The notes: generated by a model from the letters alone, not told the origin. A DNA stretch of 64,000 bases from Candidatus Tayloriibacteriota bacterium (GCA_037129895.1 JBAXUB010000006.1:3580-67579); one strand, 5' to 3'; counted from the stretch's first letter, positions 12,531 through 46,975 are shown. Numbers and translations are program-made.

Positions 12531-13274
12531 ATGCAAGAACAAAAGAAATCTAGTTTGGTGGTTACTTTGCTCATAATTCTGATAGTGGCAGTGCTAGCTG
12601 TCGGCGGATATTTAATTTTCGGATCAAATATCAAGGGATTATCTATGGGGGATAAAACAGCTACTTCTACATTATTTACATCGGGAACGACCGCGAACGT
12701 AGCGACAGTCAATGGTGTAGCTATTACAAAAGCAATATATGATTCAGCTTTTACAAGTACGATCGCATCTTATCAAGCACAAGGTATTCAAGCGACTAGT
12801 TCAGATGATCTAGCAAAGGTTCGTACTCAGGTTTTGGATGGCCTCATAGGTAACGAGCTGTTAACTCAAGCCCTCACTGCTTCCAAGATGGCAGTCACAC
12901 CTGCTGAAGTAGAGACAGAGTATCAAGCACTAGTTACCCAATCTGGCGGAGTTGAAGGTTTCAAGGCGGCACTGACAAAGAATAATCTCACAGATGCACA
13001 ACTCAGAATTAATATTGAAAAACAGATATTAACTAGGAAATTCCTACTCTCTAACATTGATACCAAATCAACAACGGTTACCGATGCTGAGATAGCGAAA
13101 TTCTATGCTGAATATAGTGCTTCACAAAAAGCTAGCGGCAACAAGTCCGTTCCGGCCATGAAGGACTTGAGTGCTCAGATCAAGCAACAGCTCACTGGAG
13201 ATAAGGAGCAGGCCCTCATCAATAAATTTATAGCTACTCTTCGTGCAAGTGCAGATGTTGTCATAACTCAGTAA
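12531..13274 (+). CDS. membrane-anchored SurA-N-terminal-domain-like chaperone (no PPIase domain)
   Basis: N-terminal TM helix followed by a helical domain resembling the SurA/PpiD N-terminal chaperone module. Weak call. Confidence 0.4.
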   Translation: MQEQKKSSLVVTLLIILIVAVLAVGGYLIFGSNIKGLSMGDKTATSTLFTSGTTANVATVNGVAITKAIYDSAFTSTIASYQAQGIQATSSDDLAKVRTQVLDGLIGNELLTQALTASKMAVTPAEVETEYQALVTQSGGVEGFKAALTKNNLTDAQLRINIEKQILTRKFLLSNIDTKSTTVTDAEIAKFYAEYSASQKASGNKSVPAMKDLSAQIKQQLTGDKEQALINKFIATLRASADVVITQ

Positions 13275-13705
13275 TGAATAAATCGATTGCTATCCGCTGC
13301 CGCGCAGTCATCGTCGTAGATGGAAAATTGTTGGTAGTCAAACATGCACCAGACAGCCCATTTTTTGCATTACCTGGTGGACATCTGGAATGGGGAGAAG
13401 ATGTAGATGAATGTGTGAGTCGTGAATTGCAGGAAGAACTCGGTATAAAAGGAGAGGTGGGAAGGTTGCTATATGTAAATACATTCATAATCGAAGGTAC
13501 TCAATCGGTCGAATTTTTCTTTGAGATCGAGAACGCCAGGGATTATATCGGTATAGATAGAAGTAGGGCCTCTCACGCGAGTGAAATAGGTGATCTACGT
13601 TGGGTTAGTAGTGACGATGGTGTAGATATTTTGCCAGCTATATTGAATAGAGATTTGAAAGAGGGGACACTACTGTCGCATGAGGTCAGGTTCATAAAAG
13701 AATAA
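13274..13705 (+). CDS. NUDIX hydrolase
   Basis: Nudix box GGHLEWGEDVDECVSRELQEELGI (Gx5Ex7REUxEExGU). Confidence 0.88.
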   Translation: MNKSIAIRCRAVIVVDGKLLVVKHAPDSPFFALPGGHLEWGEDVDECVSRELQEELGIKGEVGRLLYVNTFIIEGTQSVEFFFEIENARDYIGIDRSRASHASEIGDLRWVSSDDGVDILPAILNRDLKEGTLLSHEVRFIKE

Positions 13706-34620: not shown

Positions 34621-37536
34621 TTACTGACCAACTACTATACTGACCAATCTGTTCGGTACTACTACTATCTTTTGGATCGCCTTACCTGTTAGCCACTTCA
34701 TGACCTCTGGGACCTTCTTGGCTGTTTCCTCTAGTAATTCCTTGCTAGTGTCTTTTGCCGCCATGAATGAACCACGCATCTTTCCGTTTATCTGAACTAT
34801 GATATTCACTTCATTATCCTCTATCAATTTCGGATCAAATTCTGGCCAGCTAGATATATGGATCGATTTCTTGTTGCCTAGGCTCGACCACAATTCATCC
34901 GCAACGTGAGGCATGAATGGAGCGAGGATCTGTAACAATAACTGAAATTGTTCCTTCGATATTGATTCCGCCCTGTCTAATTCGTTGACTGCTATCATGA
35001 GTGAGCTTATCGCGGTATTGAATTTTAAACCATTGATATCGTCTGTCACTTTCTTGATAGTCTTGTGAATGATTTTGATAATATTTATGTCATCAACCGC
35101 GGACGAAAGCACTTTCTCACTCAATCTCCAAACCTTTTCAACAAACCTTCTCGCACCGACCATACTGTCAGTGCTCCAGGCGATCTGTTGGTCAAACGGA
35201 CCCATGAACATCTCATAAACACGGAGAGTATCAGCGCCGAATCTAGCAACAACTTCGTCAGGGTTAACGACATTACCAAAACGTTTTGACATCTTGCGAC
35301 CATCTTCACCCATGATTAGCCCAACGCTTTGCAGTCTAGAAAATGGTTCTATTGTAGAGGTTACACCTATGTCATAGAGGAATTTATGCCAGAATCGTGC
35401 GTAGATAAGGTGACGAGTTGCATGTTCAGCTCCGCCAATATATAGATCAACTGGTGCCCAGTACTTTTCCTTTTTCGAATCAACTAGAGCTTTCTTGTTC
35501 TTTGGGTCCATATAGCGCAGGTAGTACCAAGATGATCCCGCCCATTGAGGCATAGTGTTCGTCTCGCGGCGAGATTTACCTTTGCATTTCGGGCACTTTA
35601 CATTGACCCATTTTCCTATAGCTGCTAGTGGTGACTCACCAGTACCTGTTGGTTCATACGATACTACCTTTGGCAATTTTACCGGCAGGTCTTTCTCTGG
35701 TACAGGAACTACTCCACAGTTCGCGCAGTGAATAAGTGGCATCGGTTCGCCCCAATATCTCTGTCTAGAAAATACCCAGTCGCGAAGCTTGTATTTGATC
35801 GTCTTTGATCCAAACTTTCTGATCATCTCATCTTTGTCTTCAAGCTTGATCTCACGAATAGGCAGATCATATTTTTTAGCAAAATCAGCATCCCTCTCAT
35901 CGTGTGCAGGGACCGCCATGACCGCACCTGTTCCATAGTCAGCCAATACATAGTCAGCTATCCAGACTGGTACAGATTCATTGTTGGCCGGGTTCACAAC
36001 TCGTATGCCTTTCAATTCAACTCCCGTCTTTTCCCTCTTTGCATCAGTTCGTTCCATCTCCGTTTCAAGTTTTGCTTTCTCGATGTATTCGACGACTTCG
36101 TTCCTATTCGAAATTTTCGGCAATAAACTTTTAACATATGGATGTTCAGGAGCAAGTACCATATATGTCACGCCAAATATCGTATCAGGACGCGTTGTGA
36201 ATACCTTGACTGATGGATGTAGTGCGGCCAATATTTCGGGTTCTTCTAATGCACAGAAATGTTCTTCCTTTGCTCGGACTTCGATCAGTCGTGCATCAAG
36301 CTGTGTTGATAGGTGATTCAAATATTTTGCTCTGAACTCTTCTTGTGTGTCAGATAGGACTGCAATATTCCCATTTGCTTGTTTCTTTATCAAATCAAGG
36401 TCAAAGTCCCACTTAAAAGTTTCATGGAACGGTCGAGGCTTAGCTGATTCACCAAAGAAACTGGGATCGCTCGCTGCAGCAACTATCACTAGTCCAGATA
36501 TCGGTTCATTAAGTTTCATCAGTACTTTCATAGCTACTACTGCTCCCAAGCTGTGGCCAATCAAAACAGTATTTTCATCGAAATGACAGTTTTTCAAGAC
36601 GAAGTCTACCTGTTCATCCTCTGTTGGGTTAAAGGCATTTGGCAACTCTGGTGCAGTGACTTTGTGGCCCTTCTTTTCTAGCTCTGATTTGAGCCATGGG
36701 ATGAAGTTACTCTCTGCACTGCCTTCGAAGCCGTGGAGAATGATGTAATTGGCGCTAATATTCTCCGTGGTTGTTGATGCAAATGGAAAATCGATGATAG
36801 CTCCTTCACTCTTCCCTATCCAATTTCTTTGCGATTCCTTTATAGATTCTGGCCAGTCGAGTAAGTTTGTCCCATCAGATTTCTTGGCGTCCAAGTCATT
36901 CAATAGTCTATCTGCATAGTCCGTGATCTTGAGTACCCATTGGCGCAAGGGTCTCTTCTCGACTGGTGTTCCACATCTCTCACACCTACCATCCTCGACA
37001 TCTTCGTTTGCGAGAACTGTCTTGTCTGTTGGACACCAATTGACTGGTTCATTGGACTCGAATGCCAAGCCTTTCTTAAATAATTGCAAGAAAATCCATT
37101 GTGTCCACCTATAGTATGCAGGATCGGTAGTATTGATCTCACGTGTCCAATCATAGTCGAGTCCTATGATCTCTAGCTGTTCCTTGAAACGTTTTACATT
37201 TCTCTGTACTGCTATCAGAGGATTGGTTCGGGTCTTGATGGCATAATTCTCGGCCGGCAATCCGAATGCATCAAAGCCCATCGGGTGTAACACCGAGTGA
37301 CCCTGCATGCGTTTCATTCTGGAAACGACATCAGTTGCGATGTACCCTTTTGGGTGGCCAACATGTAGTCCTTCACCCGATGGATATGGGAACATGTCTA
37401 GAACGTAATATTTGCTTTTCTCGGCGTCTTCTTTCGATCTATAAATCTTGGACTTTGCCCACTTTTTTTGCCATTTCTTTTCTATAATTAAATGGTCATA
37501 TGCTTTTGGGACCTGCTTGTTGGCTTTGGATTTCAT
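34621..37536 (-). CDS. leuS: leucyl-tRNA synthetase carrying an inserted alpha/beta serine-hydrolase-like domain
   Basis: HIGH region MFPYPSGEGLHVGHPKGY, editing-domain TTRPDT, KMSKS region. Between WIGKSEGAIIDF and TTRPDT, where E. coli has ~15 aa, a ~190-aa segment with IILHGFEGS...GHSLGA...EEHF is inserted. Start taken at ATG 37534-37536. Confidence 0.85.
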   Translation of the reverse strand: MKSKANKQVPKAYDHLIIEKKWQKKWAKSKIYRSKEDAEKSKYYVLDMFPYPSGEGLHVGHPKGYIATDVVSRMKRMQGHSVLHPMGFDAFGLPAENYAIKTRTNPLIAVQRNVKRFKEQLEIIGLDYDWTREINTTDPAYYRWTQWIFLQLFKKGLAFESNEPVNWCPTDKTVLANEDVEDGRCERCGTPVEKRPLRQWVLKITDYADRLLNDLDAKKSDGTNLLDWPESIKESQRNWIGKSEGAIIDFPFASTTTENISANYIILHGFEGSAESNFIPWLKSELEKKGHKVTAPELPNAFNPTEDEQVDFVLKNCHFDENTVLIGHSLGAVVAMKVLMKLNEPISGLVIVAAASDPSFFGESAKPRPFHETFKWDFDLDLIKKQANGNIAVLSDTQEEFRAKYLNHLSTQLDARLIEVRAKEEHFCALEEPEILAALHPSVKVFTTRPDTIFGVTYMVLAPEHPYVKSLLPKISNRNEVVEYIEKAKLETEMERTDAKREKTGVELKGIRVVNPANNESVPVWIADYVLADYGTGAVMAVPAHDERDADFAKKYDLPIREIKLEDKDEMIRKFGSKTIKYKLRDWVFSRQRYWGEPMPLIHCANCGVVPVPEKDLPVKLPKVVSYEPTGTGESPLAAIGKWVNVKCPKCKGKSRRETNTMPQWAGSSWYYLRYMDPKNKKALVDSKKEKYWAPVDLYIGGAEHATRHLIYARFWHKFLYDIGVTSTIEPFSRLQSVGLIMGEDGRKMSKRFGNVVNPDEVVARFGADTLRVYEMFMGPFDQQIAWSTDSMVGARRFVEKVWRLSEKVLSSAVDDINIIKIIHKTIKKVTDDINGLKFNTAISSLMIAVNELDRAESISKEQFQLLLQILAPFMPHVADELWSSLGNKKSIHISSWPEFDPKLIEDNEVNIIVQINGKMRGSFMAAKDTSKELLEETAKKVPEVMKWLTGKAIQKIVVVPNRLVSIVVGQ

Positions 37537-37565
37537 AGCTAGAATGATAGCGCAAAATCGGAAAG

Positions 37566-37601
37566 TATACAAAAAGCACCCGACCTATGAAGATCGGGTG
37601 C
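37566..37601 (-). terminator. rho-independent terminator (minus strand)
   Basis: Minus-strand reading: GCACCCGAtcttcataggTCGGGTGCttttt, an 8-bp GC-rich stem followed by T5. Confidence 0.75.
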
Positions 37602-37630
37602 TGGTGTGTCGAAGGTCGTTTTGTGCTCTA

Positions 37631-37852
37631 CTAGTGCGTCATGCACTGGTAGACTGCCCCCAAAATAAGAACAACGAATATCACAGCTGATATCAGCATG
37701 TAATACGTCCCATCTGGGTGGGTACTCCTAGGGCTTGGAGTCTGGTCACTGTCTAGAGCGCAGCGGTCTTGACGATGCTGACATAGTGTCAGCCAGTCAA
37801 AGTGCGGCGATCTGCGAGTGGCTCTACTGCCCGTCAATCTGTATCTATGCAT
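37631..37852 (-). CDS. small Arg-rich tail-anchored membrane protein (73 aa)
   Basis: It has its own minus-strand promoter (TTGCTA-N17-TATAAT at ~37897-37925), an RBS AAGGAAAGG 8 nt before the ATG, and a terminator directly downstream. C-terminal TM helix MLISAVIFVVLILGAVY. Locally elevated GC. Confidence 0.5.
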   Translation of the reverse strand: MHRYRLTGSRATRRSPHFDWLTLCQHRQDRCALDSDQTPSPRSTHPDGTYYMLISAVIFVVLILGAVYQCMTH

Positions 37853-38010
37853 AGTTTTAACCTTTCCTTGTAAATTTTCAACTGGCTTACGCGTGTATTA
37901 TACCACGAGTCCGTGCCAATAGCAAGTGTGCTGCTAGGAGTAATAGTACTACTTTCCGGCGTAAAGTACAGGGGGTAAATTGAACGATTTGATCTGCTAA
38001 CTTTTACAGA

Positions 38011-39234
38011 TTACTTGTACCTCAAGGCCTCTAAAGGATTCATTTTTTCAGCTCTTCGTGCCGGCCATACTCCACCGATAAGTCCGACGACGGTAGAGAT
38101 CATGATAATAAAGAAAATAAACCAGATTGGATAAGAAAACAACCTATTGTAGGATCCGCCAAATGACTGAGATAATAGATTGAAACCCCAGTTCAATGAT
38201 TCACTGGCCACAAAACCGAGCAATATTCCAGACAGGCCACCCATGAAACCTATCATGGTAGATTCCGTCAAAAAGATCCATCGGATATCCTTTGGGGATG
38301 CACCGATAGCTCTCATAATACCAATCTCATTTGTTCTCTCCAATAGCGAAATAGTCATGGTATTGATAAGTCCGATCGCGGCAACGATAAGGGCAAAGAC
38401 TCCAAATATACCCAAAGTGATCTGTATAGCGCCGAAAATCTTATTTGCTTGATCAACTGTATCTGACAATGATGAGACTAGATATCCGGCATTGATGAGT
38501 GCTTCACGAACAATCGGAATATCACTCGAGCTCAGAACCTTAACTTTCGCTAGATTGTACCTATCGATGATTATCGAGGGAAAATCCTTTGTATTCAAAT
38601 ACACTTCAGCCGTATTACCTGAGCCTTCGACTACACCTATAATCTCAAAATCATCCCCAATCGATATTTCCTCCATTATACTTGAGCCTTTCTCTTTCGG
38701 TACTAGGAATGAGAAGTTCAATTTCTTGCCGACCATTTCATCATTCTTTATATTGAACAATTGCGATACTAGTGAACTGACAACGATCTTCTTCGTGGTA
38801 TTGTCTTCAAAGAATTTACCACTCATAGGAGATTTACCATCAAGTGCAAAGAAGTCTGAATTGATCACATTGATAGAAGCTTCAGCGAATACGTTATTGT
38901 GGCTAGCTTTACCAGTGAAATTTGCTTGAGGGCTAACCTTGTCTACCCCATTTATTGTAAGAATCTTCTTTATCGCATAACTATCAAAAACAATAATGTT
39001 CGGATCCGACGGCAATATATCTAGTGACAGTAGAGCATCCTCAGTCGTTATACTTTTTAGCAAACTCGCTTGCAGTCCATAACCAAATGATACCAATGAT
39101 AGTACGACCGCTATAGCTATAGCTACACCCAAAATAGTAAAGAAAAAACGAGATTTCCGATTCTTCAGATTTTGAAGTGTTAAGTATATTAAATCAGTGA
39201 GCTTCATAATATTATTTGGAAATAACCAATTCAA
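38011..39234 (-). CDS. ABC transporter permease, MacB/FtsX family
   Basis: N-terminal TM helix, ~230-aa extracytoplasmic domain, and three C-terminal TM helices in the FtsX-like fold (IGIMRAIGASPKDIRWIFLTE). Confidence 0.8.
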   Translation of the reverse strand: MNWLFPNNIMKLTDLIYLTLQNLKNRKSRFFFTILGVAIAIAVVLSLVSFGYGLQASLLKSITTEDALLSLDILPSDPNIIVFDSYAIKKILTINGVDKVSPQANFTGKASHNNVFAEASINVINSDFFALDGKSPMSGKFFEDNTTKKIVVSSLVSQLFNIKNDEMVGKKLNFSFLVPKEKGSSIMEEISIGDDFEIIGVVEGSGNTAEVYLNTKDFPSIIIDRYNLAKVKVLSSSDIPIVREALINAGYLVSSLSDTVDQANKIFGAIQITLGIFGVFALIVAAIGLINTMTISLLERTNEIGIMRAIGASPKDIRWIFLTESTMIGFMGGLSGILLGFVASESLNWGFNLLSQSFGGSYNRLFSYPIWFIFFIIMISTVVGLIGGVWPARRAEKMNPLEALRYK

Positions 39235-40501
39235 TCTCTCTGCTAAATCGTCTCGCTGTTAATCTGTTGAGGCCCACTCCACCTAGCTTTTCTGATTCGT
39301 CCAACAATTTCAACAGTTCTTTATCAGATATATCTGCCCTAATTCTCTTACCTATGAACTTATCCAGTTTTCTAACCTGAGACAATGAGACCTTGCCACG
39401 ATACTGATCCAATAGATGTTTTCGTATTATGGAAACTTCATCGTTTACTTGTTTCGTCTCATGAGCACGCTCAGTAGTAACTATCTTCTCTACCTTTTCT
39501 ATCTCATCGGATGCTTCAAATATCGTGTTAGCAATTCTCTTTGCCTTTTGTGAATATAGTCCTGCGCCAATTTTTTCATCATCCAATATCTTTACTAATT
39601 CCTGTTTTGTAATCTTCTTGGAAATATAATCCTCAATAGATATTTCTATCTTCTGTTCAGTATCTATGTCATAAGGCATGAGCAATGTTCGCATAAGCAA
39701 TTTAGCATGAATTCTCAACCTAGAAAGATCTGGATTATTGGCCGCTAATTTATCAAATTCAGACTGCTCACCATCTTTACCAGTAAGAGTGCGTCCTTTG
39801 TTGGTGTTAACTACAACCCTTTCCAAAACACCATCCTTCAGATAAAAGACTCGATCAGCATAATGTGTATCGTTGGCATTATGTGTAACCTGGATAACAG
39901 TCTTCTTGTCTTCTCTGTTTATCTGTGCCAATAATTCCAACACGATAAATGAATTCTTCGAATCAAGGTTTCCGACGGGCTCGTCTGCAAGTATGATTTC
40001 TGGATCATTCATGAGTGCTCTGGCTATAGCAGTTCTCTGTTGCTGACCCCCAGACATCATTGATGGCTTATTGTCTGCATAAGGGGTAATTCCAAATTTA
40101 TCCATCAATAATTTGGCTCTCTTTTCCCTTTCATCGACTGGGACTCCGGAAAACATTTTTGATAGCATCATATTATCCTTGGCTGATAGATGCGGCACGA
40201 GATAGAAAGCCTGGAAAACCATACCTATAGTGTCTCGATAGAAATTTATGAGATCATTTGGTTTTATGACTTTGAGATTGTTACCACCCACTACCACTTC
40301 CCCTAGTGTGGGACTTTCCAAACCAGCAATAGTGTACAATAATGTTGATTTTCCGCATCCCGATGGTCCGAAAAAAACTATATACTCACCTTCGTATATC
40401 TCAAGGTTGATATCCTTTATAGCCGTGAACTCATTGGTCTTGCCGACATCATATCGAACGGTGACATTTTTCAATTGAATTATCGGCTTCATTTGTGGCA
40501 T
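39212..40501 (-). CDS. ABC transporter ATP-binding protein (MacB/LolD-like) with ~200-aa C-terminal repeat extension
   Basis: Walker A GPSGCGKST, signature MSGGQQQRTAIARAL, Walker B ILADEP, H-loop QVTHN. The extension carries three ~35-aa repeats (ITKQELVKILDDEKIG / ISDKELLKLLDESEKLGG / VSLSQVRKLDKFIGKRI). Confidence 0.85.
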   Translation of the reverse strand: MPQMKPIIQLKNVTVRYDVGKTNEFTAIKDINLEIYEGEYIVFFGPSGCGKSTLLYTIAGLESPTLGEVVVGGNNLKVIKPNDLINFYRDTIGMVFQAFYLVPHLSAKDNMMLSKMFSGVPVDEREKRAKLLMDKFGITPYADNKPSMMSGGQQQRTAIARALMNDPEIILADEPVGNLDSKNSFIVLELLAQINREDKKTVIQVTHNANDTHYADRVFYLKDGVLERVVVNTNKGRTLTGKDGEQSEFDKLAANNPDLSRLRIHAKLLMRTLLMPYDIDTEQKIEISIEDYISKKITKQELVKILDDEKIGAGLYSQKAKRIANTIFEASDEIEKVEKIVTTERAHETKQVNDEVSIIRKHLLDQYRGKVSLSQVRKLDKFIGKRIRADISDKELLKLLDESEKLGGVGLNRLTARRFSREIELVISK

Positions 40502-40567: not shown

Positions 40568-43500
40568 CTATTCTCCTTTCATGAAACCGAAAGTCGTATC
40601 AAGGTTTTTGAAGATAAGGTCAACAACGGATCCTTTTGGTTTTTGAGTCAATACAGTATATGGTTCTGATTTGGTAGCATTGCCTGCAGCATCACCTGAT
40701 TCAACGACGATCTTGTATATAGTGCCTGGTTTTAAAAGTGTTGTAACGATGATATGATCTCGAACCAAGTTTGTCTCAGTAGGAGTTGATTGGTCTAGAT
40801 TATCCGATGTACCCTGAGCGAACAGCACCCTAGATGTAGCTGGTTTGTCTGACTTCCATGAGATTATAGACTGTGTTGTCTCTATTCGATCTGGGATGAT
40901 AGATGATGTAATTCGCACGTTTGATATCTTGGGTGCCTCTGTTGACACTGTCGTACTGAAAGGAATTATAGATGGATTCGATGTATTACCATCATTATCT
41001 ATGGCATTCACTGTAAAGGTGTATCCCGTTGAGTAGTTTAGATTATTTGCTGTATATGTGTGCTCTTTGACAAAGCTTGGATCATCTACTTTGGTGATTT
41101 TTCCGGTTGAATTATCTTTGATTTCGATCTGACTCTTTGTTGGCAGGTCTGTCTTCCATGTTAGTGTCGCTTCACTTTCTAGTATCTTTTCAAATTTGAT
41201 ATTTGAAATATCTGGTACCAATGAAGTCGTAGTAAATGTTCGATCACTAGATAGTGAGGCTGTTCCGACCAAGCTCTGTGATCTTACTTGGTAATGATAC
41301 GTTGTGGATGGTGCTAGGTTTTGTAGTATGACCTCGTGATCAGAAGTCTTTTCATCCGGGAATCCTGCACTGATCGAGTATGAACTATCATTCTTGTAAT
41401 CAGAGGCTTTGGAATATCCCACTAAACTATTTGAAGCCTTGTCTGTGACCCAGCGTATCGTAGCTGTGTTGGCTGAGGACTCTACTTGTATGTCGGTACC
41501 GGAAATAACAGGAGAAGCAACTGCTTTTGAAGCAAGTGCTGACAATGAGGACGCTAGTTGGGATTCAGAAATATTTGATAGATTTGAGTTCTTGATCAGT
41601 CCAAATAGCATTGCCTTGATGATCGAGGCAGATGCACTCAAAGCCTTATTGTATGCACTAGTCTCCTCTGCCGTCATACTCGAGGTATCAACATCTATAG
41701 GTATGTCCTGAGACACAACACCATTGGCCAACGTTGTGAATGTAGTATCCACCCCTTCGCCTACGTTGTCATAAATATCAGTCACATAAGCCTTGAAATG
41801 ATATGTTGTAAGAGGGGTGAGGTTGTTTAGAGAGATCTGATGGGTGAGGCCGTAGACACCAGTGCGTTTTGTTTCTGATCCATATGATGTTGTCTTGCCG
41901 TACTTTACTTTTCCTGTAGCTATCTTGGAAGATTTGAATGAAATCGTTGCGGAATTACCTCCAATAGAGTCGACAACAACATTAGAAATGACAGGTACAG
42001 TCAAATCTCTATTATCCAATGCCCCCCCTCCTCCTCCACCTACATATTCAGTTTTTGTAACATATACAACGGTTGGAGCAAGTGTAGTGAATGAATATTT
42101 CTCGCCCGCCCTATCATCGATTGCTATGTTTTCTGAACGATCTCTCGAACGGACTACGAAGTAGTATGTCGTACTAGAAACAAGTCCAGTGATAGACATT
42201 GAGTGTTGAGTCTTGAACATATCCGGCTCGTTTTCTCGTATTCCTAGATCCTTCGCTATTCCCCATTCAACCTGAGAATTGGATTGTTCATCTGTAGTCC
42301 AGGTGATCGTAGCACTGCTTTCACCGATGATTGGTGTTTTTACATCACTGATGACTGGAGGGACGATGTCTCGAGTAGTGTTTACTACATAGTAATTGAT
42401 CACTCCGTCTACTACATTCTTGTCTGTAGCAACATTGCCTTCTTCATCTATTGATTTTACGTAGTAATAGTAGTTAGTTCCTTTGACTAGACCAGTTAGA
42501 GTAATACTGTGACTGGTAGTTGTGGCTACTGAAGTGACGACCTCTGGACTAGTTAAGTTACTATTTGTTGAATAGTATACTGATGAATCTGATGCTAAGT
42601 TAGTGTGCCATGTTACGGTAGCTTCAGTGTCTTGAGTGTCGGATGTTAATATTTGGGATATACTCGGTCCTGGGTTTGTGATGAATGTATATGTTTCAGC
42701 TGCCTGTTGATTGATTTGCGCTTGGGAGTCTTCTGATGTGACTAGGAAGTAGTACTGTGTACCTGGTGTGAGGTTGGAGAGGACGACAGAGTGGGAGGTT
42801 GTCATGTTGGAGACGCCAACAGATTTCGTATAGTTCGTCTTATTTGTACCAGGATATGATGTAACTGCTTCGTAGAAGACTGTTGAATCAGAAACAGTAT
42901 TGGTATTCCATGTGATCGTAGCACCCGTTGTTGTTATTGAACTAGTTGCCACGTTATCAAAAAGTATTCCATTCGTTGTAAATGTATACATCTCTCCTGT
43001 ATTATCACCAATCCCAACATTGCCTGACTTGTCTTCTGACAGTACTCTGTAGAAATATTGGGTATTCTTTTGCAGATTTGAAAGTGTAACGTAGTGGTCG
43101 GTGCTTAATCCGGTAGTCTTTGAGGTCGAGGCAGTAGGATCTTTCATTATTCCCCATTCAACCTGAGAATTGGATTGTTTATCTGTAGTCCAGGTGATCG
43201 TCGCATCGCTATCACTTATAAGTGCCGTCTCTACACCACTGATTATCGGTTTTGAAGTATCTTCAGAAGTATTGAGTGTATAATAGTTAATCGTACCGTT
43301 CACTACGTTCATGTCGGTTGCCACATTACCGTCTGCGTCAACGGATTTTACATAGTAATAGTATCTTGTACCTTTCACTAAGTTTGTCAATTTGATTCGA
43401 TGATTGGTCGATCTGGAACCAGAACCGATAATCTCCACAGAATTAGACATGTCTGTTGAAGACGAATACCATACAGATGAGTCGGCATTTGTCGATGTGT

Positions 43501-46500
43501 TCCAAGTGATAGCTGCTTCAGTGTCAAAGATTTCTGCTGTTGTTACATTAGATATTCTCGGACCTATTTCGGTTCTAAATGTATATGAGGCAGAAGATGA
43601 TTGGCCGGAATTGTTCGATGCGTCTTGTGACTCGACTAGGAAATAGTACTGGGTATCTGGTATCAATCGATCTAGAATCACTGTATGAGAGGTGAGCATC
43701 GATGGAACTCCAACTGATGCCGAATATGCACTTTTATCAGTCCCAGGATATGTAGTCGAAGCAACATAATAAATGATCGAGTTTGCATACTTGTTTGTGA
43801 TCCAGGATATATAGGCACCAGATGTTGTTGTCGTACCTATAGTTACTGTGCTCAATGATGGTAATGCTATATCACTACCACCTGTACCATCTGGACGATC
43901 GGCTGTCGATGCTGGCGAAAATAGTGATATGTTCCCATCGTTATCTTCTATTGACACTTTATATGAATATGTAGAGCTCTCAGATAGTCCGCTATCTACA
44001 ATGTAGTTCAGCATTCTATTGGTTATCGTTGTAAGTAAGCTAAAACCTCCACCGTTTACAGAACGATATACGTTATATCTCCTGAAACCTTGAGGTGGTA
44101 CAGGAGAAACAGCCCAGGCATAGAATTCACGCCATTCTAGTGTGTTAGGGTTAGATATGTCTTGGAAGAAATTACTCGCAGTTGGTATTGGCGGAGTGAC
44201 AGAGACGATTGATGATGAATTGTTTTTAGCATCTTTGAATACTGCGTATATAGTGTCACCAGAAATGACCGAGGATGTCGTTGTGGAATTGGCGTATGCG
44301 TAGTAGTTAGGTACGTCAGAAAGATCTGCTGTCTTCCCTACCTTCATCACTAATGCGGTATCGTCTGTGGCTGATAGAGTTATGAGTGCTGGTGATTGAG
44401 AAGCATCGATACTAATAGGCAAAGCACCTAGACTTGGAGTTTTTGTGTCCAAGACAAAAGCAGCAGATGTAGATGATGCTGTATTATTTGCCGCCTCTCT
44501 ATCATCCACAATTACCTTTATCTTTGCATTGGCTGCATATTGACCCGTCAATTGGTTAATGATCGTTGAAGTGGCTGTAAATGTTCTATATGTAGTAGTT
44601 GATACAGCCTTGTCACTGTAACTACTTGCTTGCATAGTCGAAGTCGTCGAAATCAAGGTATATGATGAACCTCCATCGAGAGAATAGTAGAAAGATGGTC
44701 TCAAATAGCCAGGCATCGTTGTCCCAGTATCAGTATCTGGATCACGTATGGAATAGTTGATGGTGATCGTTCCATCACTATTCTGCACAGCACCAACGCC
44801 GCCAGCTCCAGTAGTCGGGTAGTTAGGATCAAAGCCTGGAGATGCGTTTACCACATATGTTAATGTGGCACTATTCAATGTTGGAGTGGATGCTCCATCT
44901 GATATTAGGTATGCTTTGTATTGAACCCATTGGTCGTTCACGCCATCTGTCTGAGCTGCTGGTGCAGCTTCAGTTCCGTTAAGGTTTGTGTAATATGTCG
45001 TGGTTGCACCGGTTGGACCAATAAAGTTTGACCACGTGCCTGGTACACCAGCATTGTCTGGTGCAGTCCTGATCTGAAATTTAATACTCGAGCTTGATGT
45101 TGTAGCTTGTGACCATGATATGCCAGACAAGAGATTTGCTGAGCTTGATGTGTTATATGAAGATGATGTGAGTGTTGTCGACGTAGCGTATGTGGAATAT
45201 GTGATCGTGACATCATTAAGTGTTGGTGTTACTGCTGTATCTGAGGTCGAAAGTGTAGCTTGGTATTGTACATATCTATGACCATTAGTGACGCAGCTGC
45301 CAGTGCTTAGTGCCGCACCACTTGTGATGTTGGAACAACTTGCGTATGCCGTTGCACCTGCCATTGATGAGCTATTGGAAGATCTAGCTTTTATGCTTAC
45401 TGTCTGAGCACCAGTCTTCGTCCAGGATAATGTGCCCCAGTTGGCTACACTCTTACCTGCGTCTATGACGCCTGAAGTGTATGTGCCGGAAGAGGCGTAG
45501 ACTCTGGATGTGGCATTAAATCTATAGAACGCTTTTCCACCAAATCCGGGAGATGTATCACCCTGAAGGATATACAATCTAGTTCCGTTACTGTCACTGA
45601 CAACTTCTATCTGACTACCAGCGCCCAAGCCAGTAGGTAGACTTGTCAGTGTTGTCCACGAATTGCCCGTTATCGAATACCTATAGAAACCTGTACTGGA
45701 ATTACCAGGTGATGCATAAATTTCATCAGCTGAACCATCACGAAACATGATTGACCCATACATATCATTGCCTCCTGGTGCCGGAAATATCTCAGGAACA
45801 TTAGTGAGTGGTGTCCATGTATTGGACGCAATAGAATATTTCTTCAAAGATTGAGTATCGCCACCAAGTAGCATATATATCGTGTCATCAGTCCCATTCC
45901 TTATCATCCTCCCACTTTTACCCAAACTGACTGGAGACATATTACTCCAGGAATTTCCAGATATCGAATACCTAGCCAGATTACCTATTGTTGGTCTGTA
46001 AATATAATTTTCACCAGGACCTCTAATTCCATTTCCGTAAGCCTTAATCCAGCCGTCTGTCGGCGGTGTTAGCAGGGTCCAAACATTAGTTGATATTTGA
46101 TATTTGTACATCTGGTCATTTGACTCATAAATATAATCTTCTCCGTCTACATGCAGTAATACATCCGTAGGATTAGACTGAAGAGAATTTACTGCATCTG
46201 CCAACCAAGTCCATGTATTCGATGATATTGTGTAAACGAGCAAAGAAGCACCGGCTCTCAGATAAATTTTACCAGTAGTTATGTCTATAAAGGATCTTGA
46301 GCCCAAAAAATTAGTCGTTGGTATTGTTGCCAAAGCCGTCCATGTATTATCTGCGATGGTAAATTTATAGAATGTAGTTCCGTTTCCGCCCGAAAGCACG
46401 TATAACTCGTTATTATATTTATGCAGAGATGAACCCATCGAAATATTTACCGGTGAACTTGTAAGAGTTGTCCATGTGCCAACATTAGAGATACTACTCG

Positions 46501-46975
46501 TAAGTTGAATACTCGTAGCTGCAGCTGTTCCAGTAGTCTCTGTAGATGAGAAAACTTTACCGGTAAGATTAAAACCAGTTGAAGTCGTCCCATCGTCGGT
46601 CATAATATTTGTCGTTGTTGATGAAGCTATCTGTAAATCTGCTCCAGCATTAACGGCTAGTGTTGCTGCATCTTTTGCAGAATATTTAGTCCAGTTTGAT
46701 TGATTGGATGTATGATTGGGGTATGTTCCACCATCTAGTCCGCCGGACCATGTTGCTTGTGACCATGTATATGTGGCAGCTAGAGAAGTTTGATAGTCAA
46801 AATATATACTAGATCCTACAATAGATAATAGAAGTAAGAGTGCAATACCCCTTCTACCTACGATAAAATACGCCAAGTACACACATTTTCCGAGGAAATT
46901 TAACTCGTCAGTCTTCAGGACTTTTCTTATACTGTAAAAACGTTTGCGTCGCCGACGTTGTGTAAGCATTTGCAT
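40568..46975 (-). CDS. giant cell-surface protein (2135 aa): N-terminal anchor, beta-propeller-like region, multiple FN3-like repeats
   Basis: N-terminal Arg-rich segment plus a TM/signal anchor. Kelch/propeller-like repeats (...NTWT.L...P). At least 8 FN3/purple-acid-phosphatase-N-like modules of the form (SATITWTTD.QSNSQVEWG...T..H.V.L..L...T.Y.Y.V). It is co-oriented with the ABC transporter genes and has a shared terminator. Confidence 0.7.
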   Translation of the reverse strand: MQMLTQRRRRKRFYSIRKVLKTDELNFLGKCVYLAYFIVGRRGIALLLLLSIVGSSIYFDYQTSLAATYTWSQATWSGGLDGGTYPNHTSNQSNWTKYSAKDAATLAVNAGADLQIASSTTTNIMTDDGTTSTGFNLTGKVFSSTETTGTAAATSIQLTSSISNVGTWTTLTSSPVNISMGSSLHKYNNELYVLSGGNGTTFYKFTIADNTWTALATIPTTNFLGSRSFIDITTGKIYLRAGASLLVYTISSNTWTWLADAVNSLQSNPTDVLLHVDGEDYIYESNDQMYKYQISTNVWTLLTPPTDGWIKAYGNGIRGPGENYIYRPTIGNLARYSISGNSWSNMSPVSLGKSGRMIRNGTDDTIYMLLGGDTQSLKKYSIASNTWTPLTNVPEIFPAPGGNDMYGSIMFRDGSADEIYASPGNSSTGFYRYSITGNSWTTLTSLPTGLGAGSQIEVVSDSNGTRLYILQGDTSPGFGGKAFYRFNATSRVYASSGTYTSGVIDAGKSVANWGTLSWTKTGAQTVSIKARSSNSSSMAGATAYASCSNITSGAALSTGSCVTNGHRYVQYQATLSTSDTAVTPTLNDVTITYSTYATSTTLTSSSYNTSSSANLLSGISWSQATTSSSSIKFQIRTAPDNAGVPGTWSNFIGPTGATTTYYTNLNGTEAAPAAQTDGVNDQWVQYKAYLISDGASTPTLNSATLTYVVNASPGFDPNYPTTGAGGVGAVQNSDGTITINYSIRDPDTDTGTTMPGYLRPSFYYSLDGGSSYTLISTTSTMQASSYSDKAVSTTTYRTFTATSTIINQLTGQYAANAKIKVIVDDREAANNTASSTSAAFVLDTKTPSLGALPISIDASQSPALITLSATDDTALVMKVGKTADLSDVPNYYAYANSTTTSSVISGDTIYAVFKDAKNNSSSIVSVTPPIPTASNFFQDISNPNTLEWREFYAWAVSPVPPQGFRRYNVYRSVNGGGFSLLTTITNRMLNYIVDSGLSESSTYSYKVSIEDNDGNISLFSPASTADRPDGTGGSDIALPSLSTVTIGTTTTSGAYISWITNKYANSIIYYVASTTYPGTDKSAYSASVGVPSMLTSHTVILDRLIPDTQYYFLVESQDASNNSGQSSSASYTFRTEIGPRISNVTTAEIFDTEAAITWNTSTNADSSVWYSSSTDMSNSVEIIGSGSRSTNHRIKLTNLVKGTRYYYYVKSVDADGNVATDMNVVNGTINYYTLNTSEDTSKPIISGVETALISDSDATITWTTDKQSNSQVEWGIMKDPTASTSKTTGLSTDHYVTLSNLQKNTQYFYRVLSEDKSGNVGIGDNTGEMYTFTTNGILFDNVATSSITTTGATITWNTNTVSDSTVFYEAVTSYPGTNKTNYTKSVGVSNMTTSHSVVLSNLTPGTQYYFLVTSEDSQAQINQQAAETYTFITNPGPSISQILTSDTQDTEATVTWHTNLASDSSVYYSTNSNLTSPEVVTSVATTTSHSITLTGLVKGTNYYYYVKSIDEEGNVATDKNVVDGVINYYVVNTTRDIVPPVISDVKTPIIGESSATITWTTDEQSNSQVEWGIAKDLGIRENEPDMFKTQHSMSITGLVSSTTYYFVVRSRDRSENIAIDDRAGEKYSFTTLAPTVVYVTKTEYVGGGGGGALDNRDLTVPVISNVVVDSIGGNSATISFKSSKIATGKVKYGKTTSYGSETKRTGVYGLTHQISLNNLTPLTTYHFKAYVTDIYDNVGEGVDTTFTTLANGVVSQDIPIDVDTSSMTAEETSAYNKALSASASIIKAMLFGLIKNSNLSNISESQLASSLSALASKAVASPVISGTDIQVESSANTATIRWVTDKASNSLVGYSKASDYKNDSSYSISAGFPDEKTSDHEVILQNLAPSTTYHYQVRSQSLVGTASLSSDRTFTTTSLVPDISNIKFEKILESEATLTWKTDLPTKSQIEIKDNSTGKITKVDDPSFVKEHTYTANNLNYSTGYTFTVNAIDNDGNTSNPSIIPFSTTVSTEAPKISNVRITSSIIPDRIETTQSIISWKSDKPATSRVLFAQGTSDNLDQSTPTETNLVRDHIIVTTLLKPGTIYKIVVESGDAAGNATKSEPYTVLTQKPKGSVVDLIFKNLDTTFGFMKGE
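42261..43235 (-). repeat. near-identical ~80-bp in-frame direct repeats (at ~42258-42340 and ~43149-43230; 891 bp = 297 codons) inside the FN3 giant gene
   Basis: ttattccccattcaacctgagaattggattgtt(c/t)atctgtagtccaggtgatcgt... occurs twice and corresponds to duplicated FN3-pair modules (EWGI.KD...). Confidence 0.7.

Follow-up and report, generated by a model that had tools for sequence, protein, structure and literature searches.

Editing modules that occur both fused to aminoacyl-tRNA synthetases and as free proteins have been described for several of these enzymes (ProRS INS/YbaK-ProX, the AlaRS editing domain and AlaX, the DTD-like domain of archaeal ThrRS). The architecture of aminoacyl-tRNA synthetases in bacteria is usually viewed as conservative, and added catalytic domains as a hallmark of eukaryotic synthetases. 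Here, we describe the leucyl-tRNA synthetase (LeuRS) gene in a stretch of 64,000 nucleotides from a Candidatus Tayloriibacteriota bacterium (GCA_037129895.1, JBAXUB010000006.1:3580-67579; the whole stretch is termed the window), in which a complete alpha/beta serine hydrolase of the YdeN/RBBP9 type is nested in-frame. It is practically certain that the host is a bona fide LeuRS, that the hydrolase occupies the tip of the first hairpin of the CP1 editing domain, that the HG, GHSLG, Asp and His motifs of the hydrolase as well as the synthetic and editing motifs of LeuRS are intact, and that the module is one of several interchangeable cassettes in Paceibacteria (Parcubacteria), the others being NUDIX (one to three copies) and HAD domains, each with its own fixed site and each independently present or absent. 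A synthetase with an added catalytic domain is of a known kind. Literature searches for LeuRS-hydrolase or LeuRS-NUDIX fusions found no description, and a domain-insertion survey of 2026 mentions the LeuRS editing domain just as an insert, never as a host.

The gene is read from a single uninterrupted open reading frame (ORF) on the minus strand (34621-37572), which comprises 983 amino acids (aa) when counted from a TTG at 37572, as in the ORF listing, and 971 aa when counted from an ATG (the 983-number minus 12); residue numbers refer to the 983-aa scheme unless marked 971. As relatives we used the best 120 LeuRS matches, all from Patescibacteria/Paceibacteria-type sources, 82 of which carry the hydrolase at exactly the same hairpin according to the alignment (81 by motif anchors, the copies on which residue conservation was counted). 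The insert, its junctions and its catalytic residues are as follows:

36787-36822, minus strand: first strand of the CP1-opening hairpin, WIGKSEGAIIDF (aa 251-262), the upstream junction (alignment; strand 242-252 (971) of the AlphaFold2 model)
36199-36786, minus strand: insert of 196 aa (aa 263-458), made up of a low-confidence linker of ~10 residues, the hydrolase domain and a strand VKVF (motif spacing, alignment, AlphaFold2)
36217-36747, minus strand: YdeN/RBBP9-type alpha/beta serine hydrolase domain (aa 276-452), collinear with stand-alone proteins of 171-190 aa
36730-36735, minus strand: oxyanion-hole HG motif, His280-Gly281, in 81/81 embedded copies
36544-36558, minus strand: nucleophile elbow GHSLG (aa 339-343), aligned with the GHS motif of YdeN and RBBP9
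36550-36552, minus strand: Ser341, nucleophile of the elbow, in 81/81 embedded copies
36349-36351, minus strand: Asp408, putative triad acid, in 80/81 embedded copies
36259-36261, minus strand: His438, putative triad base, in 81/81 embedded copies
36181-36198, minus strand: Thr-rich editing motif TTRPDT (aa 459-464), the downstream junction; T, R, D and T invariant in the 120 relatives

A preliminary description of this DNA had proposed an alpha/beta serine hydrolase of this family with a G-H-S-L-G elbow and putative Asp and His residues at the junction of the catalytic core and CP1, at 36217-36777 (aa 266-452, inside the 196-aa insert), with the frame intact and the flanking LeuRS motifs preserved. 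All of this was borne out: the position at the start of CP1 by alignment with the LeuRS of Thermus thermophilus (Tt), the frame by the single ORF, the motifs by their invariance in the relatives, and the catalytic residues by reading them in the ORF and by their retention in the embedded copies. In the alignment, query 1-253 (971) corresponds to Tt 4-237 and query 443-563 (971) to Tt 243-361; it stops at '...SEGAEILFPVE' (Tt 237) and restarts at 'IPVFTTRPDT' (Tt 243), and thus, where CP1 has the tip of its first beta-hairpin, a turn of five residues has given way to the insert, the 196 aa between WIGKSEGAIIDF and TTRPDT. In the AlphaFold2 model, the hairpin strands 242-252 and 442-447 (971) pair around the insert, which is connected by an N-terminal link of ~10 low-confidence residues and a C-terminal link of just 2-3 residues.

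We exclude both an artefact and a LeuRS domain peculiar to this lineage that is not an enzyme and shows GxSxG by coincidence. Chimeric assembly, which the preliminary description had kept as an alternative, and a frameshift are ruled out by an identical public protein and by 81 further LeuRS from independent assemblies that show the same junctions; G+C content is uniform, with no discontinuity across the insert junctions, neither direct nor inverted repeats were found at its borders, and the triad is invariant. A coincidental motif is ruled out by the fold and profile matches of the insert. An intein or another mobile in-frame element was also considered and rejected: splicing residues are missing (the insert starts with PFAST and ends with KVF followed by T), there are no flanking repeats, and the hydrolase fold accounts for the entire insert.

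The assignment to the hydrolase family is supported by Pfam matches above the cut-offs (Abhydrolase_1, 33.9 bits vs 25.8; Ser_hydrolase PF06821, 33.8 bits vs 22) and by a score of 199 bits (E 6e-61) of the ORF against a profile built mostly from stand-alone homologues, in which the window insert was also included. When a profile of the insert and stand-alone homologues was compared with the PDB, Bacillus subtilis YdeN (E 2e-42) and human RBBP9 (E 3e-34) were recovered; all significant sequence and fold matches of the insert are alpha/beta hydrolases, and no homology was found to known editing folds (CP1, INS/YbaK, AlaX, DTD, B3/B4). The fold is a compact alpha/beta hydrolase of ~180 aa without a lid, with ILHG at aa 278-281 and EEHF at aa 436-439. 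From the first strand to the last helix it runs collinear with full-length stand-alone proteins of candidate phyla radiation (CPR) bacteria and of one archaeal-type contig (171-190 aa), which indicates that a whole gene is nested in LeuRS. The 81 embedded copies share just 33-65% identity in the hydrolase region, and the domain evolves ~1.6 times faster than the LeuRS core; that the triad and the HG motif are retained despite this divergence is the pattern of an active enzyme and not of a structural spacer. Judged from sequence, the embedded hydrolase is therefore likely an active enzyme.

The host protein scores 978 bits against the NCBIfam model TIGR00396 (leuS_bact; cut-off 548) and contains the Pfam domains tRNA-synt_1, LeuRS editing domain and Anticodon_1. 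The AlphaFold2 model (pLDDT 90.2, pTM 0.81) retrieved solved bacterial LeuRS structures with Foldseek at E ~1e-76. A 971-aa protein of a Candidatus Taylorbacteria metagenome-assembled genome (P0028) is 100% identical to the window LeuRS, and it also begins at the ATG and not at the TTG 12 codons upstream. The true start is likely the ATG at 37536, because the TTG sits within the tail of a terminator-like hairpin. The remaining features of the gene are:

34624-37536, minus strand: leucyl-tRNA synthetase coding sequence, 971 aa from the ATG (ORF listing; stop codon 34621-34623)
37354-37365, minus strand: HIGH motif (HVGH, aa 70-73) of the synthetic site; His and Gly invariant in the 120 relatives
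35818-36198, minus strand: remainder of the CP1 editing domain (Pfam PF13603, 178 bits)
35890-35934, minus strand: GTGAVMAVPAHDERD (aa 547-561), in CP1; both Asp invariant in the 120 relatives
35281-35295, minus strand: KMSKS loop (KMSKR, aa 760-764), from motif reading and conservation
34738-35085, minus strand: anticodon-binding domain (aa 830-945; Pfam PF08264, 83 bits)

The HIGH, KMSKS, T-rich and GTG motifs and both Asp of HDxRD are invariant in all of the 120 nearest LeuRS, both those that carry the insert and those that lack it, and CP1 of the window LeuRS carries TTRPDT and HDERD. The leucine-specific domain is absent (in the T. thermophilus alignment query 743-749 spans Tt 579-638; window 35281-35330, around KMSKR). 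This does not disqualify the protein as a LeuRS, since the domain, although typical of the family, is not universal: the LeuRS of Mycoplasma mobile is reported to lack it as well (PMC3643597). The C-terminal part of CP1 is shortened (query 564-574 vs Tt 362-409; window 35800-35880).

The preliminary description treated the insertion as a single oddity. With the module in 82 of the 120 best LeuRS, it belongs instead to a set of nested hydrolase cassettes that spans the lineage, and a scan of GTDB genomes with back-translated patterns (generic LeuRS motifs) confirmed at least five loci. Many relatives contain further nested domains, with protein lengths of up to 1564 aa. NUDIX domains occur in one or two copies between 'LLxDLD' and 'LDWPE' and at another site after CP1, a HAD domain is nested in the LeuRS of two relatives, and altogether up to five hydrolase domains from three superfamilies are nested in relatives' LeuRS. 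The NUDIX cassettes show weak, sub-threshold similarity to RppH/Ap4A-hydrolase/DIPP-type enzymes. In P0046, P0053, P0056, P0052, P0038 and P0033 (LeuRS of 1130-1564 aa) up to three NUDIX domains and a HAD-IA domain are nested at other fixed sites.

On a tree of the LeuRS core the modules form a mosaic, each coming and going independently, and the distances among inserts correlate weakly with those among cores (r = 0.36); the modules therefore behave as optional cassettes. The cores of an insert-free (P0061) and an insert-bearing LeuRS (P0030) differ by 10.5%. The gene order around the former (LeuRS-MurG-DUF7282-GluRS-M23 peptidase) matches that of the window, which makes P0061 an empty-site comparator. 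No stand-alone hydrolase was found within ±10 kb of the insert-free LeuRS at three loci. Where the insert is missing (P0061, P0067, P0070, P0086), the hairpin carries a variable, low-complexity loop rich in N/Q/K/S of 10-25 aa, vs the five-residue turn of Thermus, and this variability suggests that the hairpin loop is intrinsically permissive. In another LeuRS (P0201, 998 aa) an IS200-like Y1 transposase domain (aa 269-374) lies in-frame at the same CP1 hairpin, and the hydrolase is located after CP1 instead.

An exhaustive search with the insert yielded 1528 cluster representatives at E<=1e-3; among the best 148 of these, 48 were LeuRS-like and 79 were of stand-alone size or fragments. The hydrolase family occupies four or more different sites in LeuRS: apart from the CP1 hairpin, it follows CP1 in P0247, P0231, P0200 and in a genome of Magasanikbacteria, it follows the CxxC knuckle in P0107, and in a Saccharibacteria genome it precedes the anticodon-binding domain of LeuRS. 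In Saccharibacteria (L013, 1964-5035) the LeuRS ORF ends inside a hydrolase placed ahead of the anticodon-binding domain, which is encoded by a separate ORF of 167 aa; this LeuRS is either naturally split or the result of a frameshift or assembly error. Sporadically, the hydrolase also occurs in ValRS, AlaRS, Met-tRNA formyltransferase (Fmt) and TsaD (P0192, P0196/P0296, P0219, P0221), with an altered elbow in the TsaD (AESFS) and Fmt (WHSFG) copies, and it forms two-domain proteins with NUDIX in both domain orders (P0236/P0250). In Microgenomates-type contigs (L004, L005, L006) a small canonical LeuRS (750-763 aa) abuts a convergent NUDIX gene, with a stand-alone YdeN-type hydrolase within 2.6-4.5 kb; the partners that are fused elsewhere are thus neighbours where they are unfused. 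In another contig a stand-alone hydrolase lies next to a free B3_4 protein.

What the module might do can be approached through RBBP9, a serine aminopeptidase that forms an aminoacyl-enzyme, requires a free alpha-amine and removes N-terminal aminoacyl residues (PMC8866121). RBBP9 is also cited as an enzyme that activates valacyclovir, i.e., as acting on the aminoacyl ester of a nucleoside analogue (reference list of PMC7730578). As the most likely of the readings considered here, we tentatively propose that the module is an autonomous, catalytically active, tethered hydrolase of alpha-aminoacyl esters or amides with a free alpha-amine, which would provide accessory clearance at LeuRS. It would cleave such bonds by an RBBP9-like chemistry, and tethering would hold it at LeuRS, where it would target what the synthetase produces or releases: aminoacyl-tRNA that is mis-acylated or otherwise unwanted, aminoacyl-adenosine, or species of the adenylate type. 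In this way it would act as a tethered trans-editing factor that supplements post-transfer editing by CP1 and does not replace it (the replacement of a degenerate CP1 is ruled out, as all editing residues are invariant). An exact geometry would not be needed for clearance, which would fit the presence of the hydrolase family at several LeuRS sites. The proposal is based on the chemistry of RBBP9, the repeated capture of the family by enzymes that handle aminoacyl-tRNA, and the links to NUDIX by neighbourhood and fusion. The place of His438 close ahead of the T-rich motif and the short C-terminal link also speak for it.

Several observations weigh against this proposal. Because the editing residues of CP1 do not vary, whether the module is present or not, a second deacylase has no obvious purpose, and the module is dispensable among LeuRS with ~90% identical cores. 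The hydrolase is also found in SecA and in a UvrA-like ATPase (P0191, P0213) and is fused to Peptidase_S51 (P0294), and the remaining gene contexts of the stand-alone hydrolases are heterogeneous. Insertion into AlaRS is rare (2/120); large proteins therefore do acquire the domain sporadically, and such events may be neutral. Finally, Ser76, Tyr99 and Glu108 of RBBP9, its alpha-amine anchors, which imply aminopeptidase specificity, align to L342, A367 and a gap-rich loop and are not recognisably conserved; near the aligned anchor positions an acidic residue (D/E369) is kept in 62/81 copies. It is because the module is dispensable, CP1 is intact and SecA and UvrA-like hosts exist that our confidence in the clearance role is kept low.

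The main rival to accessory clearance is that a housekeeping esterase or peptidase with no tie to aminoacylation hitch-hikes in permissive loops of large, essential, constitutive proteins in streamlined genomes, and persists in LeuRS through the tolerance of the loop and convenient co-expression. We regard this as somewhat doubtful. It would agree with SecA and the UvrA-like protein among the hosts, with the rarity of the AlaRS insertion, with gain or loss of the module between near-identical LeuRS, with the poor correlation of insert and core phylogenies (r = 0.36), with a hairpin loop that is hypervariable and of low complexity in insert-free relatives and that accommodates a transposase domain in P0201, and with an embedded domain that corresponds to an entire stand-alone protein. 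Yet it does not readily account for the targeting of LeuRS at four or more sites by the hydrolase family and additionally by NUDIX and HAD, for the fact that, of seven non-trivial types of host, five work with tRNA or aminoacyl-tRNA, for the LeuRS/NUDIX/hydrolase neighbourhood where the genes are unfused, or for hydrolase-NUDIX fusions outside LeuRS.

Two other explanations retain an enzymatic role. CPR bacteria are generally regarded as unable to synthesise amino acids, and an RBBP9-like aminopeptidase might free hydrophobic N-terminal residues from scavenged peptides and feed leucine to the synthetase of an auxotroph. RBBP9 is indeed an aminopeptidase, one fusion partner is a Peptidase_S51 dipeptidase, and the synthetase hosts (LeuRS, ValRS, AlaRS) all charge aliphatic amino acids; but the co-travelling NUDIX and HAD domains and the Fmt, TsaD, SecA and UvrA-like hosts would be left unexplained, the substrate-anchoring residues of RBBP9 are not recognisably conserved, and tethering would be of little benefit because a free amino acid would diffuse off, so that we consider amino-acid supply decidedly unlikely. 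Strict proofreading in cis, in which the hydrolase would add a third catalytic site along the route of the tRNA 3'-end and edit mis-charged tRNALeu or a non-cognate adenylate within the complex with tRNA, is the strong form of an idea (a cis-acting proofreading or deacylase module) that the preliminary description had marked as speculative. It would suit a domain that adjoins CP1 with a short C-terminal link and with His438 ~20 residues ahead of TTRPDT; CP1 positions 478-479 also covary with the module (P/W with it vs L without it, p ~1e-9), although this association is confounded by phylogeny. However, CP1 is intact, the module is optional, and the positions of the hydrolase elsewhere (after CP1, after the CxxC knuckle, before the anticodon-binding domain) show that a fixed geometry is not conserved, which makes proofreading in cis very improbable.

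In a broader picture, an unlikely one at present, the YdeN/RBBP9-type hydrolases of CPR bacteria and DPANN-like archaea would constitute an unrecognised class of aminoacyl-tRNA (or aminoacyl-adenylate) deacylases with an alpha/beta-hydrolase fold. Such enzymes would be free-standing in some lineages; in others, LeuRS would have captured them repeatedly, at four or more sites, as would ValRS, AlaRS, Fmt and TsaD. Along with the NUDIX and HAD domains nested in LeuRS, they would make up a modular suite for hydrolytic clean-up on the synthetase.

In a major uncultured radiation, an essential synthetase of class Ia carries an apparently active serine hydrolase, and in relatives nested hydrolases are swapped in and out as cassettes. 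Should the hydrolase act on aminoacyl esters, it would be a translational quality-control factor of a new structural type and point to a primordial function for the enigmatic YdeN/RBBP9 family; otherwise, the locus would still be a striking case of nested domains that are naturally tolerated at defined LeuRS loops, useful for engineering. Public annotation of these proteins is inconsistent: NCBI names these LeuRS proteins (P0028/P0043) 'alpha/beta fold hydrolase', and automated metabolic reconstructions may therefore score LeuRS as missing. The JGI name for one relative is 'leucyl-tRNA synthetase/predicted esterase YcpF'.

Upstream of leuS lies a gap of 440 bp (window 37575-37925), in which no T-box or other Rfam leader RNA was found and which shows the following features:

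37925-37897: promoter-like site upstream of leuS
37631-37852, minus strand: ORF of 73 aa with a GGAAAGG motif ahead of it and a C-terminal hydrophobic helix
37602-37575: strong terminator-like hairpin, ~40 nucleotides before the leuS ATG

Further upstream, a MacB-type ABC transporter pair (38014-40501) adjoins a gene on the minus strand (40571-46975) for a protein of 2135 aa, probably a giant surface protein, with seven repeats of the purple-acid-phosphatase-N/FN3 type and a Kelch-like motif. A stand-alone ORF (13226-13702, plus strand) with a canonical Nudix box, GHLEWGEDVDECVSRELQEELG, is located 21 kb from leuS; a second YdeN-type hydrolase was found nowhere in the 64-kb window.

Compared with known systems, the window hydrolase is closest to YdeN (PDB 1UXO), RBBP9 (2QS9, 7OEX) and PF06821/DUF1234, with which it shares the order HG, G-H-S-x-G, Asp, His. 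It differs from YdeN and RBBP9, which are free-standing, in being nested in another enzyme, its identity to them is just 23-26%, and its elbow reads GHSLG where RBBP9 has GHSSG, the Ser76/Tyr99/Glu108 anchors of RBBP9 again not being recognisably kept. The valacyclovirase BPHL (PDB 2OCG) is far more distant (14% identity) and has a lid; it does not belong to the family and resembles it only by analogy, in its chemistry. Among synthetases, IleRS with an N-acetyltransferase (NCBIfam NF040702, ileS_w_GNAT) is also a bacterial class Ia enzyme with an extra enzymatic domain, of a different fold and chemistry from the window hydrolase, and annotation pipelines recognise it; no equivalent curated model exists for LeuRS with a hydrolase.

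The CP1 domain of LeuRS, IleRS and ValRS is itself a nested domain (in the Rossmann fold) that hydrolyses an aminoacyl ester, but it is universal in its family and has no serine nucleophile, whereas the window hydrolase is optional and represents a second-order insertion, into the first hairpin of CP1. The editing modules that are known both fused and free provide the nearest parallel in organisation. The window hydrolase has a fold (alpha/beta, with a Ser-His-Asp triad) that is unrelated to every known editing fold, and unlike those modules its family also occurs in SecA and a UvrA-like protein. Like them, it is a hydrolytic domain that is found stand-alone or in synthetases, with a patchy, lineage-specific distribution, and that resides within or beside a synthetase which already discriminates between similar amino acids.

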